DNA of 64,000 nt, taken from contig CBDCVR010000014.1 in the NCBI GenBank assembly GCA_965223155.1, positions 480,001-544,000 on the forward strand. The letters are read 5' to 3'. Numbering within the stretch: position 1 is the first letter of the stretch; each line of letters begins with the position of its first letter. Position numbers and translations under genes: made by a program. Source of the DNA: Candidatus Multivoradales bacterium. GTDB lineage: Bacteria > Acidobacteriota > Thermoanaerobaculia > Multivoradales > JAHEKO01. Below the pieces are notes generated by a model. That model was given only the letters and a program-made list of their open reading frames with translations. It was not told the DNA's origin and searched no databases. Positions 10,450 to 41,122 of this stretch are shown here, one piece after another.

Positions 10450-10683
10450 GATAACTCCTTTAAACGATGAAACTTATCGCGCGGGTCCCCGCGAGGATCC
10501 GCGTATCTGGCTTGTATTCGGTACCCCATCAAGGGAAGTCAAAGTATAGCGAAAGAATGCTTGTCCGGCTGGGTGGAGTTGTGGTGTATGATCGGCGTTC
10601 ATCTACAGGGCGCGCCTCTTCCCGATAGTTGCACGCAACGGGAGCTGCGACCCCTCGGTACCTGTCCTAAAGGAGGGAAACAC

Positions 10684-11085
10684 ATGAAAAAGACTTTCTT
10701 GCAGATGCTTGGCCTCGCGGTGCTTCTGACGCTGCCTTTGGTGGCCTGCAACGCGGCCCAGGATGCGGCCGAAGGCACCGGCGAAGCCGTCAACGAGGGT
10801 CTGGACGCGGCGGGCGACATGGCCGAAGCGACCGGTGAAGCCGTCGGTGAGGGCATCGAAGCGGCCGGCGACATGGCCGAAGCGGCCGGTGAAGCCGTCG
10901 GCGACGCGGTGGAAGCCGGAGTCGACGCGGCCGGCGACGTGACCGAAGCCGGGCTGGAAGCGGTCGGCGACGCGGTCGAGACCGCCGGTGACATGGCCGA
11001 GACGGCCGGTGACAAGGTCAAGGAAGGCATGGACGCCGCGAGCGACGCGGTGGACGAAGCCACCGAAGACGGCGACGGCCGTTAG
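10684..11085 (+). CDS. Acidic Ala/Gly/Asp/Glu repeat lipoprotein
   Basis: AAGGAGG RBS. Lipobox LVAC. 18-aa repeats of AAGDMAEAxGEAVG. Confidence 0.8.
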   Translation: MKKTFLQMLGLAVLLTLPLVACNAAQDAAEGTGEAVNEGLDAAGDMAEATGEAVGEGIEAAGDMAEAAGEAVGDAVEAGVDAAGDVTEAGLEAVGDAVETAGDMAETAGDKVKEGMDAASDAVDEATEDGDGR

Positions 11086-11111: not shown

Positions 11112-11145
11112 AAAAGCGCCTGCCGCTCGGCAGGCGCTTTTTTTT
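11112..11145 (+). terminator. Rho-independent terminator, probably bidirectional
   Basis: AAAAGCGCCTGCCG-ct-CGGCAGGCGC followed by T8. Confidence 0.92.
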
Positions 11146-11149
11146 ACTC

Positions 11150-11178
11150 TTGATTTACGCTTTGTTTTCGCTTAACGT
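11150..11178 (+). promoter_or_regulatory. Sigma70-type promoter with embedded candidate SOS operator, upstream of imuA
   Basis: TTGATT, 17 bp, TAACGT. The element carries TTACGC-tttgt-TTTCGC. A near-identical copy lies at 15748-15776. Confidence 0.75.
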
Positions 11179-11218
11179 CTGGGGCCCTTTCTAGCCTCTG
11201 TCGAACAGAACCGGCACC

Positions 11219-12007
11219 GTGACCACCGCACTCGCTCGCTTCCCCGAACTCCAACATCTCCAATCGCGTCGGCCGGCGGGTCAACTGGCTCATACCCGAC
11301 TGAGCCATATCCAACTGACCCGGGCCCAACTGACCCGGGCCGGCGAGTTGGCCGTCCGGAACGGCGAGCCGGATGCGGCCCCTCCTCCACTACCTACCGC
11401 CATCGAGCCCCTGGACCTGCAGCTCGGCGGCGGACTGCCTCACGGGCTGACCGAGCTCGTCGGCCGGGGCAGCAGTGGACGACTCTCCGCCGTGCTGTCC
11501 ACCGTCGCCGCGGTCACCCGGCAGGGAGCCACCGCCGCCTTGATCGACCTCGGAGACGGCCTGGACCCGGGCAACGCTCACGACCTCGGAGTGGATCTGA
11601 AACGGCTCTTGTGGCTTCGGCCCAAGCACTTGAAACCGGCCTTGGCCGCGGCCGAGATCGCCCTGCAAACGGGGTTTCTCCTGGTCGCCGTGGATCTGGG
11701 AGCCCCGCCTGTTCCCGGCGGCCGCGGTCCCGACTCCGCCTGGCTACGGCTGGCCCGAGCGGCCCGATCCCGGCGCAGCTCGATCTTGGTCTCGACTCCG
11801 TACCGGGTCAGCGGCACGGCGGCCACCACCGTCGTCGAAGCTCAGCGCACCACCGCCGGCTGGCGGTCCCGACCTCATCTGTCCGCCTTCCTCCAGACGC
11901 TCGAGTTTTCCTGGCTGCTGCAGAAACACCGTCATCACCTGGGCTGCGGCCGCAACGTCTCGTTCGCCAGGACCGTGCCCGAGGCCGACCTCGGATCCGT
12001 GGATTGA
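11219..12007 (+). CDS. imuA: ImuA-like (RecA/RadA-fold) mutasome accessory protein
   Basis: LDLQLGGGLPHGLTELVG, degenerate Walker A GRGSSGRLS, GVDLKRLLWLRP. First gene of the imuB/dnaE2 cassette. Confidence 0.82.
   Translation: MTTALARFPELQHLQSRRPAGQLAHTRLSHIQLTRAQLTRAGELAVRNGEPDAAPPPLPTAIEPLDLQLGGGLPHGLTELVGRGSSGRLSAVLSTVAAVTRQGATAALIDLGDGLDPGNAHDLGVDLKRLLWLRPKHLKPALAAAEIALQTGFLLVAVDLGAPPVPGGRGPDSAWLRLARAARSRRSSILVSTPYRVSGTAATTVVEAQRTTAGWRSRPHLSAFLQTLEFSWLLQKHRHHLGCGRNVSFARTVPEADLGSVD
11282..11341 (+). repeat. 4 x 15-bp degenerate tandem repeat in the imuA 5' region
   Basis: caactggctcatacc/cgactgagccatatc/caactgacccgggcc/caactgacccgggcc, encoding QLAHT RLSHI QLTRA QLTRA. Confidence 0.8.
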
Positions 12008-13584
12008 CCGCGAAGCGGCACCGGCGCCTGGCCTGCGTCTTCGTCCCTCTCTTCCCGCTCGCCGCCCGCATCCGCAGCGAACCGCAATTGCTCGGTGCCG
12101 CCGCCGCCGTCTTCGACGGTGACGACAGCACCGCCCGGCTGGTAGCGGCCACCCGCGAGGCGCGCCGGGCGGGGTTGCGTCCGGACATGAAGCGGTCCCA
12201 AGCCCGGACCCTGCTTCCCGATCTTCAGATTCGCGCCCACGATCCGGTCTGCGAGCACACCGCGCAGGCCGCCCTGCTAGAGGTCGCTTTCCGCTACTCA
12301 CCACGAGTCGAGGACGCCCATCCGGGGGTCCTCTATCTCGACCTGACCGGACTCGAGCGGCACTACCGCAACGACAAGCCCGGCGGTTCGTATAAGAGCT
12401 TGGAGCCGCGGGCGGTCGAGACCGAGATCGCTCGAGATCTGATCGCCGACGCCGATCTCCGCGCGGACGTGCCGGCATGGATCGGCGTGGCCTCGAGCAA
12501 GCTGGCGGCTCGAGTCGCCGCGGAACGGATGCCGACTCCTACGATCGTCGCCCCATCCGAAGAAGCCGCGTTCTTGGCTCCGCTGCCTCTCGATCGGCTG
12601 CGCCCCGAGGCCACGATTCTGGAGACTCTCTCGCGCTGGGGCATCTCCTCGATCGGCGATCTCGCCGCCCTGCCCGCCAACGCGGTGGCCAGCCGTCTAG
12701 GAGACGCCGGGCTCGAGCTCCACAAGCTCGCCCGCGGCGAGGACCGGCGTCCTCTGATACCCCGCCCACCGCCGGAGCTGTTTTGCGAAGGGCTGGAGCT
12801 GGACTGGCCGTTGGTGGCCCTGGAACCTTTCCTGTTCGTCGCCAAGGCCACCCTGGAACGGCTCTGCCGCCGCCTCGACACCCGAGGATTGGCCTCGATC
12901 CAGCTCGACCTGTCCCTACACCTCGAGCCCGGAGGATTTTGCGAGCGCTCGATCCGGCTGCCGGCGCCGAGCCGGGAGGTCAAAACGCTGCTGACCCTGG
13001 TCCGGCTGGAGCTGGAACGAGCACCGCCAAACGCTCCCATCACCGGGTTCACCTTCCAAGCCCATCCCGACCGGCCGCAGGCGACGCAATTAACCGTCTT
13101 CGGCCGGCCCACGCCGGCTCCGGAAACGCTCGCGACCAGCCTGGCCCGGCTCTTCGCCCTGCTTGGGCCGGGGGCCATGGGGAGCCCGGTGCCTCTCGAC
13201 AGCTTCCTCCCCGACCGGTTCGAGCTTGCCGCTTTCCGCCCCCCCGACCCGCCGGAGCTTGCTCCACCGCCGGACCCCACCAGGAACTTGCTGGCAGTGC
13301 GTAGCCTGCGTCCCCCGGTGGCGGTGTCGGTTCGAACCCGCAACGGTTTCCCGGTCTCTCTGGACACAGCCGGAGTTCCGCCGGCGGATCGGGGCCGGTC
13401 GCACCCTATGTGCGGCTCGGTCCGGGTCGCCTCGGGACCGTGGCATCTCGAAGAGAGGTGGTGGGAAGCGTCGAGCAGTTTGATTCGCGAATACTGGGAT
13501 GTCGAGCTCGAAGGCGGCACCTTGTACCGGATCTTCCTCGATGCCAAAGCCGAACGATGGTTCGTCGACGGTGTCTACGACTGA
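12004..13584 (+). CDS. imuB: ImuB, catalytically inactive Y-family polymerase
   Basis: The TTG start overlaps the imuA TGA. Y-family motifs YSPRVE, LYLDLTG, GVASSKLAARVAA. The catalytic Asp motif is replaced by ACVFVPLF. Typical C-terminus GPWHLEERWW..REYWDVEL..WFVDGVYD. Confidence 0.9.
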   Translation: MTAKRHRRLACVFVPLFPLAARIRSEPQLLGAAAAVFDGDDSTARLVAATREARRAGLRPDMKRSQARTLLPDLQIRAHDPVCEHTAQAALLEVAFRYSPRVEDAHPGVLYLDLTGLERHYRNDKPGGSYKSLEPRAVETEIARDLIADADLRADVPAWIGVASSKLAARVAAERMPTPTIVAPSEEAAFLAPLPLDRLRPEATILETLSRWGISSIGDLAALPANAVASRLGDAGLELHKLARGEDRRPLIPRPPPELFCEGLELDWPLVALEPFLFVAKATLERLCRRLDTRGLASIQLDLSLHLEPGGFCERSIRLPAPSREVKTLLTLVRLELERAPPNAPITGFTFQAHPDRPQATQLTVFGRPTPAPETLATSLARLFALLGPGAMGSPVPLDSFLPDRFELAAFRPPDPPELAPPPDPTRNLLAVRSLRPPVAVSVRTRNGFPVSLDTAGVPPADRGRSHPMCGSVRVASGPWHLEERWWEASSSLIREYWDVELEGGTLYRIFLDAKAERWFVDGVYD

Positions 13585-13602
13585 GCCCTGTTCCACAGCC
13601 CG

Positions 13603-15708
13603 GTGGCCGAACCCTTGCTACCATCCCGCGCCGTGACCGAACGGCCCGACACCGGCGATTCATCCGCTGATCCCAGGCAGCTTCTCGGTCTCGAGAAGGC
13701 GCTCGACACGATGCAGGTCGGGGTGACCATCACCGACGTTCACCGCAGAATCGTCTACGTCAACCGGGCCGAAGCGGAGTCGCACGGCTACTCCAAAGAC
13801 GATCTCCTCGGGCGGGACGCGGCGATCCTGGCTCCCGAGCCCCTACGCAAGCAGCCCATGCCGCCCGAGGCCTTGCGCAAGCTGCGCAGCTGGAAGCGTG
13901 TCAGCACCAACCTGCGCTCGGACGGCAGCACGTTCCCGGTCGAGATCCTCTCGGACGTGGCCGTGGACGCCGAAGGCGACCCGGTGGGAATCGTCACCAT
14001 CTCGCAGGACATCACCGAGCGCCTCGAGGCCGAGCGCGCTCTCCGGGAAAGCGAGGAGCGCTTCGCCCTCGCCGTCGCCGGCGCCAACGACGGCATCTGG
14101 GACTGGAACCTCGAAACCGAATCGATCTCGTTCTCCGAGCGCTGGAAGGGCCTGCTCGGCTTCGAGCCCGGCGAGATCCGAGACGTCCCCGACACCTGGT
14201 GGTCGCGGGTCCATCCCGAAGACCTGGAATGGCTGCGCCGCGAGCTGGACCAACACCTCGAGGGCGCCAGCCAGAACCTGCACAACGAGCACCGCATGCT
14301 CCATCGAGACGGCGACTACCGCTGGATGCTGGTGCGCGGAGCGGCGATCCGGGACCAGAACGGCAAGGCGACGCGCATCGCCGGCTCGCTCACCGACATC
14401 ACCGATCGCAAGGTGCACGACCCGCTCACCGGACTGCCCAACCGGGCTCTCTTCCTGGACCGGCTCAAGAACGCCCTCCATCGTGGCCGACGCAAGCTGG
14501 ACCGCCTGAACGCGGTCCTCTTTCTGGACCTGGACCGCTTCAAGGTGGTCAACGACAGCCTGGGTCATCCGGCGGGGGATCAGCTGCTCAAGAACGTCGC
14601 CTCGGTCTTGCGCGCAAGCCTGCGGCCTGGAGACACGGTGGCCCGCATCGGCGGCGACGAGTTCCTGATCCTGCTCGAGGACATCGAGAGCGCCGACGAG
14701 GCCGCGGCCATCGCCGAACGCATTCAAGCCGAGCTGCGCCAGCCGTTTCAGGTCGACGATGAGGAGCTCTTTACCACCGCCAGCATCGGCATCGCTTTGA
14801 GCGCCACCGGGCTCGAGCCACCCGAAAATCTCTTGCGCGACGCAGACACGGCCATGTACCAGGCCAAGGCCCGGGGTTCCGGACGCCACCGAATCTTCGA
14901 CCGCGACATGCGCAAGCGCGCGCTGGATCAACTTCGCATCGAGACCGATCTACGCCGGGCCCTCGAGCGCGACGAGTTCGTACTCCATTATCAGCCGATC
15001 TTGAGGCTCGCGACCGACGAGATCGACGGTTTCGAGGCCCTGATTCGCTGGCAGCATCCGGAGCGCGGCCTGCTGGCTCCGCGAGAGTTCATCGATGCCG
15101 CCGAAGAAACCGGCTTGATCCTGCCGATCGGCCGTTGGGTGCTGCGTACCGCCTGCCTGCAGATGGCGTCATGGCTGGCCGGTGGAGCGGAGCCCGGCTG
15201 GCGAATGAGTATCAACCTCTCGCCCAAGCAGTTTGGTCATCCGCGCCTGGTCCACGACATCCGGGAGACACTTGCCAGTGCCTCGCTGGCGCCCGAGAAC
15301 CTCCAGCTCGAGATCACCGAAGGCACGTTTATCGAGAATCTCGAGAACGCCGCCGCCATGATCGATTCGCTCCGGCACATGGGCATCCAGGTCGCGATCG
15401 ACGACTTCGGAACGGGCTATTCGTCTCTGGGGTACCTGGATCGCTTGCCGGTCGACATCTTGAAAATCGACCGATCCTTCGTCAGCAAGCTGGGCACGGT
15501 GGGCGGCAGAGGCGAGGTCGTACGCTCGGTGATGGGCATGGCCGAGAACCTCCACATCCGGGTGGTCGCCGAAGGCGTCGAGACGGAGCTCCAGAAGGTC
15601 CAGCTCGAAGAGCTTCAGTGCGATTTCATTCAGGGGTATCTGCACAGTCGGCCGCAACCGGCGGAAGCGATCGGCCGGCTGCTGGCGCAGCGGCGCGAGG
15701 ACGACTGA
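13603..15708 (+). CDS. PAS-PAS-GGDEF-EAL diguanylate cyclase/phosphodiesterase
   Basis: Two PAS/PAC domains, HDPLTGLPNR, I-site RPGD, GGDEF, FEALIRW, DDFGTGYSSL, EGVET, QGY. The start could be GTG 13603 or 13633. Confidence 0.95.
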   Translation: MAEPLLPSRAVTERPDTGDSSADPRQLLGLEKALDTMQVGVTITDVHRRIVYVNRAEAESHGYSKDDLLGRDAAILAPEPLRKQPMPPEALRKLRSWKRVSTNLRSDGSTFPVEILSDVAVDAEGDPVGIVTISQDITERLEAERALRESEERFALAVAGANDGIWDWNLETESISFSERWKGLLGFEPGEIRDVPDTWWSRVHPEDLEWLRRELDQHLEGASQNLHNEHRMLHRDGDYRWMLVRGAAIRDQNGKATRIAGSLTDITDRKVHDPLTGLPNRALFLDRLKNALHRGRRKLDRLNAVLFLDLDRFKVVNDSLGHPAGDQLLKNVASVLRASLRPGDTVARIGGDEFLILLEDIESADEAAAIAERIQAELRQPFQVDDEELFTTASIGIALSATGLEPPENLLRDADTAMYQAKARGSGRHRIFDRDMRKRALDQLRIETDLRRALERDEFVLHYQPILRLATDEIDGFEALIRWQHPERGLLAPREFIDAAEETGLILPIGRWVLRTACLQMASWLAGGAEPGWRMSINLSPKQFGHPRLVHDIRETLASASLAPENLQLEITEGTFIENLENAAAMIDSLRHMGIQVAIDDFGTGYSSLGYLDRLPVDILKIDRSFVSKLGTVGGRGEVVRSVMGMAENLHIRVVAEGVETELQKVQLEELQCDFIQGYLHSRPQPAEAIGRLLAQRREDD

Positions 15709-15747
15709 ACCGGACCGGCACCGCGAACTGTTCGAGCATCGAGCCTC

Positions 15748-15776
15748 TTGATTTACGCCTCAATTTCGCCTATTCT
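15748..15776 (+). promoter_or_regulatory. Sigma70-type promoter with embedded candidate SOS operator, upstream of dnaE2 (likely leaderless)
   Basis: TTGATT, 17 bp, TATTCT. The element carries TTACGC-ctcaa-TTTCGC. The ATG follows 6 nt after the -10 box. Confidence 0.75.
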
Positions 15777-15782
15777 CGCCTC

Positions 15783-18700
15783 ATGTCCCAGCGGGCCGGT
15801 GACGGGCGCACTTCGCGAGATTTCGGCTATAGCCTGGAGTGGCTCAAGACCTCCCCCGGCGCCCGCAAGGAACAGCTCAAGCAACGGCGGTTCCGGCCAC
15901 GCAGCGTTGCCGCGCGCGGCCCCCAGTACGTCGAGCTTCATACCGCGTCGGCGTTCTCGTTTCTCGAAGGCAGCTCCCTGCCCGAAGACCTGGTCGCCCG
16001 CGCCGCCGAGCTCGGCCTGGACGCGATGGCCCTGCTCGATCGCAACGGCCTCTACGGCGCTCCCCGCTTCTACCAGGCCGCCCGCAAGGCTGGCATCCGG
16101 GCCCTGGTCGGGGCCGAGGTCTCCTGCCGCATCGAAGGCACGGACCGGCTCGCTCCCGAGCACCTTCCGCGCCTGGCGCTCCTGGTCGCCAGTCGCGCCG
16201 GCTACCGCAACCTTTGCCGGCTCCTGACGGCAGCCGCGCGCGGCCGGCCCAAGGGCCAGTCCGCAGTTGATTGGAGCCTGCTCGAAGCGCACAGCGACGG
16301 GCTGCACTGCCTTGCCGGCGGCACCGGCTGCCTGCTGGCTCGGGCACTCGTAGCTTCCCCGGCATCGAGCGCCGACGCCGCCCCCCCGCAACTGGTCGAC
16401 CGGTTGGCGGGAATCTTCCCCGGCCGGCTTCACCTCGAGCTTCAGCGCCATGGGATCCGCCGCCAGGAAGCCAAGAACCACCTCCTGATCCAGCTCTCCG
16501 AGCGCTTCCGGCTGCCCCTGATCGCCACCAACGGCGTGCGCTATGCCGGCCGGCGCGACCGCGAGCTCTTCGATGTCCTGACCGCCTTGCGCCACCGCAC
16601 GACTCTCGACGAAGCCGGCCGCCTGCTGGCGGCCAACCGCGAGCGGCATCTCAAAGACGGCGCCTCGATGGCACGGCTCTTCGCCGACCAGCCGCGTGCC
16701 CTGCGGGCCACGACCCAGCTCGCCGAGCGCCTCGACTTCACCCTGCAAGACCTCGGATACCGCTTCCCCGACTACCCGCTGCCGCCCGGCGAGACTCCGA
16801 CATCGTATCTACGCCAGGTCACCTGGAACGAGGCTCGAAACCGCTTTCAACCGCTCACCGCGCGAGCGCGGGCCCAGATCGAGCACGAGCTGGCGATGAT
16901 CGAGCGGCTGGATCTGGCGGGCTACTTCCTGATCGTCTGGGACATCGTCCAATTTTGCAAGCACGAGCACATCCTGGTGCAGGGACGCGGCTCGGCCGCC
17001 AACAGCGCCGTTTGCTACGCGCTGTCGATCACGGCGGTCGATCCGGTCGGGATGGAGCTCCTCTTCGAGCGCTTCCTTTCCGAGGAGCGGGGGGAATGGC
17101 CGGACATCGATCTCGACCTGCCCTCGGGAGACCAGCGCGAGAAGGTCATCCAGTACGTCTACAACCGCTACGGGCCGCACGGCGCGGCGATGACCGCGAA
17201 CGTCATTACCTACCGCAACCGTTCGGCCGCCCGCGAGGTCGCCAAGGCGCTGGGGTTCTCTCTCGATCAGCAGAACCGGCTGTCCAAGCAGCTCGGTAGC
17301 TGGAGCTACGACCTCGTGCGGGGCGATCCCAAATCGATGGACGCTGAGCTCGGCGAGGCGGGCTTCGATCCGGACGCTCCACGGCTGCGCCACTTCGTCA
17401 GGATGTGGCAAAAGATCCACAACCTGCCCCGGCACCTGGGCCAGCATTCGGGCGGCATGGTCGTCGCGGCCGGACGGCTGGATGAGGTCGTCCCCCTGGA
17501 GCCGGCGGCGATGGAAGACCGCATCGTCGTCCAGTGGGACAAGGACGATTGCGCCGACCTGGGCATCATCAAGGTCGATCTGCTGGGACTGGGCATGCTC
17601 CAGGCCCTGGAAGAGGCCATCCCGATGATTCGCACCCATGAGCGCGTGGACGTCGATCTGGCCCACTTGCCTCCCGACGACCCCCAGACCTACGCCATGA
17701 TTCGCAAAGCCGACACCATCGGCGTCTTCCAGATCGAAAGCCGCGCGCAGATGGCCTCTCTGCCCAGAAACGCGCCCGAGCGCTTCTACGACCTCGTGAT
17801 CCAGGTCGCCATCATCCGCCCCGGCCCGATCGTGGGCGGCATGGTCCACCCGTACTTCGAGCGCCGGCTGAAACGCCAGCAAGTCAAGTATCTGCATCCT
17901 TGCCTCGAGCCGATCCTCAAGCGCACGCTAGGGGTGCCCATCTTCCAGGAGCAGATCCTGCGCATGGCCATGGACGCCGCCGGCTTTTCGGGAGGCGAAG
18001 CCGAAGAGCTGCGCCGAGCCATGGGATTCAAACGCTCCACCGAGCGCATGCACGCGATCGAAGAACGGCTCCGGCGGGGGATGAGCGAACGCGGCATCCT
18101 GGGTGATGCGCAGGATCAGATCACCCAATCCATCACCTCCTTTGCGCTCTACGGCTTCCCCGAGTCCCACGCCGCCAGCTTCGCCTTGTTGGCCTATGCC
18201 AGCGCCTACCTCAAATGCCATCACCCGGCCGCCTTCTACGCGTCCCTTCTGAACGCCTGGCCCATGGGCTTCTACCATCCCGCGACCCTGGTCAAGGACG
18301 CCCAGCGGCATGGCGTCTCCGTCTTTCCGGCCGACGTCAACCACTCGGGATGGCGTTGCCGCTGGGAGGCCGGCGGCATCCGGCTGGGGCTGCGCTTCCT
18401 TCGAGGTTTGCGTAAGAGCTCGGGGGCGGCCATCGAGACGGCCGCCGGAAGCTCCGCCTTCACCAGCGTTGCCGACCTGACGGGGCGGACATCGCTCCAG
18501 GAAGACGAGCTCGCCGTCCTGGCCGAAGGCGGCGCGCTCACCTCGCTCGGACTCAGCCGGCGCCAGGCGCTCTGGCAGGCCGCCTGGGACGCGAAACCTG
18601 GAACACCGCTCTTCGATTCCTTGCCGGGAGGCCCTACGGCAACGTCCCCGGCAGCGAGCCCACTACCCGAGATGTCGGCGATCGAAGAAACTCTCGCGGA

Positions 18701-19085
18701 CTACGAAGCCACCGGCATGACCACCGGCGCCCACCCGATGTCCTACTTGCGGGCCCGCTTGCGCCGAGACGGCGTCCTGCCCACGGGCACGATCCCTCGG
18801 GTTCCGGATGGCCGGCGGATTCGCACCGCCGGCACCGTCATCGTGCGCCAACGCCCCGGCACCGCCAAGGGCGTGCTCTTCATCACCCTCGAAGACGAGA
18901 CCGGCATGGTCCAGGCCATCGTCCGGCCCGAGCTCTTGCGCAAGTACCGCAAGACCCTGGTCGGCCATCCCGGCCTGATCGTGGAAGGCCGGGTCCAGCA
19001 CCGGGACGGCTCGCTCTCGATCCAGGGTGAGCGCTTCTGGCCCATTACGCACCTGGCCGAGACCCCGAGCCACGATTTCCGCTGA
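15783..19085 (+). CDS. dnaE2: Error-prone DNA polymerase III alpha subunit (ImuC)
   Basis: PHP start YVELHTASAFSFLEG, GRGSAANS, catalytic PDIDLD, GFPESHAASFA, OB fold RQRPGTAKG, DnaE2 tail SHDFR. Confidence 0.96.
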   Translation: MSQRAGDGRTSRDFGYSLEWLKTSPGARKEQLKQRRFRPRSVAARGPQYVELHTASAFSFLEGSSLPEDLVARAAELGLDAMALLDRNGLYGAPRFYQAARKAGIRALVGAEVSCRIEGTDRLAPEHLPRLALLVASRAGYRNLCRLLTAAARGRPKGQSAVDWSLLEAHSDGLHCLAGGTGCLLARALVASPASSADAAPPQLVDRLAGIFPGRLHLELQRHGIRRQEAKNHLLIQLSERFRLPLIATNGVRYAGRRDRELFDVLTALRHRTTLDEAGRLLAANRERHLKDGASMARLFADQPRALRATTQLAERLDFTLQDLGYRFPDYPLPPGETPTSYLRQVTWNEARNRFQPLTARARAQIEHELAMIERLDLAGYFLIVWDIVQFCKHEHILVQGRGSAANSAVCYALSITAVDPVGMELLFERFLSEERGEWPDIDLDLPSGDQREKVIQYVYNRYGPHGAAMTANVITYRNRSAAREVAKALGFSLDQQNRLSKQLGSWSYDLVRGDPKSMDAELGEAGFDPDAPRLRHFVRMWQKIHNLPRHLGQHSGGMVVAAGRLDEVVPLEPAAMEDRIVVQWDKDDCADLGIIKVDLLGLGMLQALEEAIPMIRTHERVDVDLAHLPPDDPQTYAMIRKADTIGVFQIESRAQMASLPRNAPERFYDLVIQVAIIRPGPIVGGMVHPYFERRLKRQQVKYLHPCLEPILKRTLGVPIFQEQILRMAMDAAGFSGGEAEELRRAMGFKRSTERMHAIEERLRRGMSERGILGDAQDQITQSITSFALYGFPESHAASFALLAYASAYLKCHHPAAFYASLLNAWPMGFYHPATLVKDAQRHGVSVFPADVNHSGWRCRWEAGGIRLGLRFLRGLRKSSGAAIETAAGSSAFTSVADLTGRTSLQEDELAVLAEGGALTSLGLSRRQALWQAAWDAKPGTPLFDSLPGGPTATSPAASPLPEMSAIEETLADYEATGMTTGAHPMSYLRARLRRDGVLPTGTIPRVPDGRRIRTAGTVIVRQRPGTAKGVLFITLEDETGMVQAIVRPELLRKYRKTLVGHPGLIVEGRVQHRDGSLSIQGERFWPITHLAETPSHDFR

Positions 19086-41030: not shown

Positions 41031-41122
41031 GGCCAATCTCGACCGGGCCTGCGATATCCTCCACGGTCCACGCTGGTGGCCAAGATCGCCGGCAAGCCCA
41101 AACGAAACGTAAGGAGTAGAAG

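Follow-up and report, generated by a model that had tools for sequence, protein, structure and literature searches.

Putative twin promoters of imuA and dnaE2 in a Thermoanaerobaculia bacterium carry a direct repeat that is probably the LexA operator of the lineage

The imuA, imuB and dnaE2 genes of Candidatus Multivoradales bacterium, a member of the phylum Acidobacteriota and the class Thermoanaerobaculia, lie in a stretch of 64,000 nucleotides (NCBI GenBank assembly GCA_965223155.1, contig CBDCVR010000014.1, positions 480,001 to 544,000 of the forward strand), referred to here as the window, the numbering of which is used for this locus. In the named collection, the LexA loci closest to the one of this genome are likewise acidobacterial and mostly labelled Thermoanaerobaculia. 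Two similar 32-mers precede imuA (11147-11178) and dnaE2 (15745-15776), and these twin sites are considered here as putative promoters under the control of the repressor LexA. With gene contexts set from open reading frame lists and Pfam, imuA, imuB and dnaE2 share a strand and fit within 8 kb, with a GGDEF-EAL gene breaking up the series, and by Pfam and NCBIfam they form an imuA-imuB-dnaE2 cassette. The names imuA and dnaE2 had already been given in an initial annotation made from the sequence, and Pfam agrees with both; to be corrected is the order of the genes, since imuB and dnaE2 are separated by a PAS-PAS-GGDEF-EAL gene (13603-15708). The features of the locus are as follows:

11112 to 11141, plus strand: strong intrinsic terminator of the upstream gene (10561-11085), with a 13-pair stem, 8 GC pairs and a T tail
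11144 to 11149, plus strand: possible third, weaker half-site TTACTC, 11 bp upstream of the first half-site, with a conjectural role
11150 to 11155, plus strand: imuA -35 hexamer TTGATT, assigned by sequence
11155 to 11171, plus strand: predicted LexA box of imuA, TTACGC-TTTGT-TTTCGC (31.1 bits with a position weight matrix, PWM, built from relatives only)
11173 to 11178, plus strand: imuA -10 hexamer TAACGT after a 17-nt spacer, with TAnnnT at the same place in relatives
11219 to 12007, plus strand: imuA, RecA-like, GTG start (Pfam RecA, 3.8e-12)
About 12004 to 13584, plus strand: imuB, Y-family polymerase with IMS domain (Pfam IMS, 1e-18)
13603 to 15708, plus strand: PAS-PAS-GGDEF-EAL gene (Pfam EAL, 8.9e-77; GGDEF, 1.8e-49)
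15748 to 15753, plus strand: dnaE2 -35 hexamer TTGATT, with TTGAT likewise in the dnaE2 promoters of the genus
15753 to 15769, plus strand: predicted LexA box of dnaE2, TTACGC-CTCAA-TTTCGC (26.8 bits, same PWM)
15771 to 15776, plus strand: dnaE2 -10 hexamer TATTCT, 6 nt before the dnaE2 ATG (15783)
15783 to 19085, plus strand: dnaE2, error-prone Pol III alpha (Pfam DNA_pol3_alpha, 2e-78; PHP, finger, HHH_6 and OB domains)

The imuA product matches the NCBIfam family ImuA_translesion at 1.3e-08, under the curated cut-off, and its position before imuB agrees with the assignment. An in-frame TTG of imuB at 12004 overlaps the imuA stop codon (TTGA), and imuB orthologues in relatives show 49-61% identity. 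Relatives are defined here as loci from the same genus, family or order, 30 being taken for each of lexA, imuA and dnaE2; as these are kin, the locus counts given below are not independent.

In the twin sites, 24 of 32 positions are identical, with unbroken identity over the initial 14 bases, then TTTCGC, then TA. Both contain TTGATTTACGC-N5-TTTCGC (11150-11171 and 15748-15769), in which half-sites begin at 11155 and 11166 before imuA and at 15753 and 15764 before dnaE2, forming a direct repeat with an 11-bp period. A search of the window for this pattern with up to two mismatches returns 2 matches, whereas 100 dinucleotide-preserving shuffles average 0.00. The shared 14-mer, CTCTTGATTTACGC, is present in exactly 2 copies in the whole genome (4,004,543 bases), with 1 more site at one mismatch. 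The likeness ends at the edges of the 32-mers, where the flanks fail to align, so that it amounts neither to a longer repeat nor to a mobile element. The GC contents of the two sites are 0.38 and 0.41, compared with 0.67 for the window. The initial annotation had placed both 32-mers at these coordinates and had described their 14 shared bases followed by TTTCGC and TA, their character as AT-rich islands in GC-rich DNA, the lack of a further copy in the window, and a TTGATT-17-TAnnnT geometry with the repeat filling the spacer, all of which is borne out at both sites when the sequence is re-read.

The genome holds a single lexA, the upstream region of which reads TTGAC-TTGCGC-TCTGT-TTGCGC-CATAAGAT-CGGGCC-ATG and has the same layout of -35 element, 11-bp direct repeat and -10 element as the twin sites. 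Its product, a protein of 206 residues, is a full-length LexA equivalog (TIGR00498, 7.8e-60), with the S24 peptidase part included, and its alignment to LexA proteins of solved structure covers the entire length (3k2z, 2.9e-38). Among relatives, nearly all of the 30 lexA loci carry TTGAC-TTACGC-N5-TT(G/A/T/C)CGC-C-TAnnnT. The best PWM site upstream of lexA reaches at least 15 bits in 27/30 loci and at least 20 bits in 21/30, counts that are descriptive because the PWM was trained on the same lexA sites.

The box is also conserved at the other two genes. By regular expression, 27 of 30 loci have it upstream of imuA (the exceptions being one contig end, L124 and L137) and 23 of 30 have it directly before dnaE2 (the exceptions including two contig ends and one genome in which dnaE2 abuts imuB); the best upstream PWM site undercounts at these genes, since poorly conserved N-termini misplace the search window. 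TTGAC or TTGAT occupies the -35 place in 27 of the 30 orthologous imuA upstream regions, and the 11-bp period is common to all aligned sites. The proteins neighbouring the conserved boxes are just 49-69% identical. In the dnaE2 sites of L155, L163, L164 and L174 the repeat is kept and TTGAC is lost, which indicates that the repeat is conserved independently of the -35 element. Across the order, dnaE2 has its own putative box-bearing promoter, whether or not it is linked to imuAB.

For a genome-wide scan, a 20-nt PWM was built from 69 sites of relatives with the genome itself left out (consensus CTTACGCCTTATTTACGCCT; 26 bits of information). The scan returns 7 sites of at least 20 bits, against 0 each in the reversed genome and three local shuffles (maxima 17.2-19.3). 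The sites are located as follows:

imuA: 31.1 bits, plus an overlapping register of 25.5 bits shifted one period upstream (C14:491143) in the tandem TTACTC-N5-TTACGC-N5-TTTCGC
dnaE2: 26.8 bits
lexA: 25.1 bits
DUF222-HNH endonuclease gene: 31.6 bits, where the spacer of TTGACA-17-TAAATT-6-ATG holds the box in inverted orientation
Between fpg and a divergent Rv2578c/PA0069-like radical-SAM gene (272 residues): 27.2 bits
339 nt upstream of a ribonucleotide reductase gene: 21.6 bits

Genome-wide, the motif is in this way restricted to lexA and to repair or mutagenesis genes; hits at lexA and other repair genes are what the initial annotation had anticipated from such a scan. The box in the fpg region is inverted over the -10/+1 region of the radical-SAM gene and abuts CAT, the start codon of that gene on the opposite strand; for this reason the radical-SAM gene, rather than fpg, is the likely target. 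The radical-SAM gene is present in 15 of 30 fpg loci, 13 of which have a site of at least 20 bits and one a site of 14.6 bits, and 0 of the 15 fpg loci without the gene have a site of at least 11 bits. One locus of the unpublished genome G005, siteless in both cases, is included in the counts for radical-SAM/fpg and for recA (see below), which become 13/29 and 1/29 without it. The presence of the box in both orientations, inverted at the HNH and radical-SAM genes, fits an operator and not a polymerase-recognition element. In five near-complete relatives, TTRCGC-N5-TTDCGC has 31 matches compared with 8 in the reversed control, and extra high-scoring sites in relatives precede dinB (Pol IV), a DinB-family gene, another DUF222-HNH gene and the fpg/radical-SAM pair.

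A connection to LexA itself is provided by other classes. In Terriglobia, whose LexA proteins are 45-47% identical, lexA promoters read TTGAC-TTCGC-N6-TTCGC-TAcAAT, with the repeat at the same place in the promoter spacer, and metagenome-assembled genomes (MAGs) labelled as other phyla contain TTCGG-type repeats. The box type changes together with the LexA recognition helix, SSYGTVxKHLKLL being paired with TTACGC (box A) and SSLATVHKHISNL with TTCGC. Among 80 lexA loci, those with an A-type helix (S[YF]GT[AV]xKH) have box A in 22 cases, box B (TTCG-N6-TTCG) in 0, both in 0 and neither in 4, while those with a B-type helix ([LPVTI][AS]T[VI]HxH) have box A in 0, box B in 35, both in 2 and neither in 5. 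In a second Thermoanaerobaculia LexA group (L063-L073; 52-54% identical; helix SSFGTLQKH), an AT-rich pattern is seen instead, with TTCTAAGAAAATAAGG in the 100 nt upstream of lexA, followed by GCCTAATAATTT just before the ATG. This AT-rich motif may be a further type of LexA box.

Mazon is said to have determined experimentally, in 2006, that the LexA box of Acidobacterium capsulatum is of the direct-repeat type. The GTTC-N7-GTTC box of Caulobacter, Rhodobacter and Acidobacterium capsulatum resembles the box described here in being a direct repeat with an 11-bp period, in its presence at lexA and imuA-imuB-dnaE2 promoters, and in having LexA as the presumed repressor. However, the half-site here is TTACGC (or TTGCGC/TTTCGC), of 6 nt with a 5-nt gap, rather than GTTC. 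When the two are aligned on the shared C, positions 1 (G to T) and 3 (T to A) differ, and the following GC is conserved here. Lacking G at position 1 and having A for T at position 3, the box is a variant and not a member of the GTTC type by sequence. The helices differ as well (SSYGTVxKH here rather than SSLATVHKH), and recA is without a box in the host's family. The TTCGC-N6-TTCGC sites of Terriglobia are the link between the TTACGC box and the GTTC-N7-GTTC type, which three reports give as the consensus of LexA in Alphaproteobacteria (PMC8565304; PMC9578287; PMC12700426).

Based on these observations, the twin sites are read as promoters of the sigma-70 type that carry the LexA operator of the lineage, in which LexA would bind the repeat in the spacer and block RNA polymerase; a probability of roughly 0.85 is assigned to this reading. 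The operator consensus in this Thermoanaerobaculia order is most likely TTACGC-N5-TTACGC, a direct repeat with an 11-bp period of which the twin sites show the form TTACGC-N5-TTTCGC. The initial annotation had proposed a diverged LexA box of the 11-bp direct-repeat kind, and this proposal gains support from the lexA site, the conservation in relatives, the scan of repair genes, the link through Terriglobia and the co-variation with the LexA helix. In the undamaged cell, a bound LexA dimer would cover the stretch from the -35 to the -10 element, or the -10/+1 region at the inverted site, and would occlude RNA polymerase. Upon DNA damage, LexA self-cleavage stimulated by RecA would free both promoters for the parallel transcription of two separate units: the imuA-imuB operon, probably extended by the GGDEF-EAL gene, and dnaE2 as a leaderless mRNA.

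Several findings weigh against this reading. Under the strict 9 of 12 rule, a scan for the sigma-70 consensus returns nothing between 10900 and 16100, because both sites score just 7-8 of 12; the box fills a TTGAy-17/18-TAnnnT spacer by sequence, and with the strict scan silent the promoter assignment rests on position and conservation. The initial annotation had expected a match at recA as well, which does not hold, since no recA box is found in the genome, and among relatives recA has a site of at least 20 bits in 1/30 loci (G039), with 0/17 in the same family reaching 12 bits; recA sites of 12-16 bits are present in a few other families. The 21.6-bit site at the ribonucleotide reductase gene is not conserved, being found in 1/23 loci, which is that of the genome itself, so that the reductase is a doubtful regulon member and one or more of the hits at or above 20 bits may be fortuitous. 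The simple pattern is only weakly enriched in five further genomes (19 matches, against 13 in the reversed control), and relatives also have high-scoring sites before genes that have no evident part in repair, namely HlyD (twice), an amino-acid permease and a PQQ-repeat gene. Finally, the helix classes follow phylogeny, and the helix/box table therefore supports the link to LexA without proving it. The uvrA gene was not located, and the genome scan at 12 bits or more gave 23 listed sites and no others.

The lack of a recA box, which is unusual for a LexA regulon, is a point in favour of a different assignment, in which the repeat would be the operator of another DNA-damage regulator that also controls lexA. 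Damage regulons independent of LexA are known in other phyla (PMC9578287). Nevertheless, such a regulator would have to account for a box type that changes with the LexA recognition helix across classes and for a box that occupies the same promoter place as the TTCGC repeats of Terriglobia lexA. The presence of the box at lexA in nearly every genome is, moreover, the standard signature of LexA autoregulation, and control by another regulator is considered improbable.

It is more improbable still that the shared sequence is a mere promoter flavour, copied between genes and bound by no regulator. Flavours of the box do exist at the level of the genus, where lexA has TTGAC-TTGCGC-N5-TTGCGC and dnaE2 has TTGAT-TTACGC-yTTnT-TTTCGC, and four sister genomes have TTGAC-TT[AG]CGC-TTTAT-TT[AG]CGC-CTATATT before imuA. 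The imuA 32-mer of this genome matches the dnaE2 promoters of the genus at 24-28 of 32 positions and other imuA promoters at 21-24 of 32, and the predicted imuA leader is longer here than in the sister imuA genes. The likeness of the twins beyond the consensus is thus probably the result of promoter copying or conversion specific to this genome, although sequences this short are suggestive only. Conservation is unusual for promoter spacers, whereas this repeat is retained throughout the order at three unlinked genes; it also persists where TTGAC is lost and is inverted at other promoters. Least credible is activation by an OmpR/PhoB-type winged-helix response regulator, a kind of protein whose typical targets are direct repeats of roughly 11-bp periodicity, since the repeat occupies repressor positions (between -35 and -10 or over -10/+1), a good -35 element (TTGAC) is already there, no such regulator is linked to the examined loci, and the co-variation with the LexA helix would be left unexplained.

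If the repeat is indeed the LexA operator, its regulon has a counterpart in content in mycobacteria. Proteins of the 13E12 family are presumably DUF222-HNH proteins, and the mycobacterial LexA operator is a palindrome of the Gram-positive type. The box described here is a direct repeat; the operators are unrelated, and the two regulons would be convergent in content. In Mycobacterium tuberculosis, the LexA regulon obtained by chromatin immunoprecipitation sequencing (ChIP-seq) comprises lexA, dnaE2, imuA'/imuB, Rv3395c, Rv2578c (radical SAM) and six genes of the 13E12 family (PMC3381160). The targets predicted here, lexA, imuAB, dnaE2, the Rv2578c-like gene and the DUF222-HNH gene, mirror that regulon, and there too lexA, dnaE2 and imuA'/imuB are three separate units under LexA control. 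In Caulobacter, a direct-repeat LexA box controls imuA-imuB-dnaE2 (imuABC), a mutagenesis cassette that is induced in the SOS response (PMC12700426). There the cassette is one operon with one promoter, whereas here and in most of the order a separate promoter with a box serves dnaE2 also where it is linked to imuAB, and in this genome the GGDEF-EAL gene lies between imuB and dnaE2. A direct-repeat LexA motif of Balneolaeota, TTACACATATTTTWTACATA, was established by comparative genomics and electrophoretic mobility shift assay (EMSA), with a regulon in which translesion polymerases are central and a radical-SAM protein is included (PMC7739468). Both are direct-repeat LexA motifs, but sequence, spacing and phylum differ, and the Balneolaeota regulon includes recA.

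A literature search found no published LexA box of Thermoanaerobaculia and no TTACGC-N5-TTACGC operator, the matches to TTACGC among the papers listed being incidental, with subscription journals mostly outside its scope, and a prior description is possible. The TTACGC operator would represent a new variant of the direct-repeat LexA boxes, ordinary in its logic and new in its sequence and lineage. LexA is a textbook repressor whose binding motif has changed repeatedly while the core of its regulon, lexA and translesion polymerases, has stayed constant, and the box supplies a candidate operator for a largely uncultured acidobacterial class, by which SOS regulons could be predicted in Thermoanaerobaculia MAGs. 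The phylum offers natural pairs of LexA helix and half-site (TTCGC with SSLATVH, TTACGC with SSYGTV), which open to direct testing both the reading of a direct repeat by a LexA dimer and the drift of LexA specificity. The regulon appears minimal, with lexA, imuAB, dnaE2, a few others, and recA excluded in the family, and would support control of mutagenic polymerases as the conserved core of the SOS response.

The PAS-PAS-GGDEF-EAL protein has both its GGDEF and EAL motifs intact. Its gene begins 18 nt past imuB, and because the gap contains neither a box nor a clear terminator, it is probably co-transcribed with imuAB and hence co-regulated in the SOS response. The order of imuB followed by the GGDEF-EAL gene is also found in the relatives G002 and G010, and in G032 the same gene precedes dnaE2. 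A literature search for a LexA-controlled GGDEF/EAL gene found nothing specific among the papers listed. A broader proposal, which is tentative and held at clearly less than even odds, is that imuA-imuB-PAS/GGDEF/EAL forms one LexA-repressed operon and that the operators of the phylum form a series shaped by stepwise co-evolution of operator and LexA helix. This series would lead from GTTC/TTCGC (Terriglobia and others) to TTACGC (this order) and to the AT-rich, TAAG-type upstream motif of the second Thermoanaerobaculia LexA group. If the operon is real, DNA damage would directly induce a cyclic di-GMP (c-di-GMP) turnover enzyme along with the mutasome, and in this lineage the SOS response would be coupled to c-di-GMP signalling. 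If the series is real, it would speak for a direct-repeat LexA that is old and widespread, and not a one-off transfer from Alphaproteobacteria.

The positions of the -10 elements also bear on translation. In this genome the -10 element TATTCT is followed by 6 nt and the ATG at dnaE2, and a 6-nt gap likewise separates the -10 element from the ATG at lexA (C13, about 1070270-1070300). The initial annotation had predicted a dnaE2 transcription start near 15783, a position that is kept here; a start so close to the ATG, which comes 6 nt after the -10 element, would make the dnaE2 mRNA leaderless. In leaderless mRNAs, transcription begins at the A of the start codon, with a -10 element some 6-8 nt before it and no Shine-Dalgarno sequence; the spacing at dnaE2 and lexA fits this layout. 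In relatives, a scripted count finds a gap of 5-8 nt between the -10 element and the start codon in 11 lexA loci and 13 dnaE2 loci. The gap from TAnnnT to the start codon is exactly 6 nt in 12 dnaE2 relatives by script and, by eye, in the dnaE2 of this genome. A further 10 lexA loci and the genome's own dnaE2 came out of the script as 'None' only since their protein match sets in right at the start codon; the same gap is visible in their sequences. This suggests that leaderless mRNAs are a regular feature of the lineage. Most imuA genes of the order would carry leaders instead; here, imuA transcription is predicted to start near 11185, which would give a leader of about 34 nt.

Other observations concern lexA and its surroundings. 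In relatives (L006-L034), a recurrent AAGTCAAG is located 40-90 nt upstream of the lexA promoter and reads CTTGACTT on the other strand, where it is probably the -35 element of the divergent neighbour gene of lexA. In G017 (C2:766368-770152) and G022 (C5:2873128-2876957), a LexA-like gene (37-39% identical) adjoins imuB (28-29%) and dnaE2 (40-41%), representing a lexA-linked form of the cassette, and G022 has the lineage's own lexA besides. In G017, with its divergent LexA, the pattern has 6 matches compared with 3 in the control, one of them beside a dinB-like gene.

Two isolated box-like sites were also recorded. The first, on the minus strand at about 41094-41113 of the window between protein kinase and OsmC-like genes, scores 18.3 bits, which is within the control maxima of 17.2-19.3, and is probably a chance match. 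The second, a 20.0-bit site at C15:1050043-1050062, minus strand (L178), lies just beyond two tRNA genes and near tadA, the signal recognition particle (SRP) RNA gene and dnaX, and has no gene downstream on its strand.

At the imuA promoter, the T-run of the terminator at 11112-11141 runs into the promoter itself. The gene upstream (10561-11085) encodes a repetitive protein of 174 residues with a C-terminal MT0933-like antitoxin motif and a weak phasin match. A 10-mer, ACCGGCACCG, is present both at 11210-11219, just before the imuA GTG, and at 15714-15723, after the stop codon of the EAL gene and upstream of the dnaE2 promoter; this duplicate may be the trace of a rearrangement or a chance match in GC-rich DNA.

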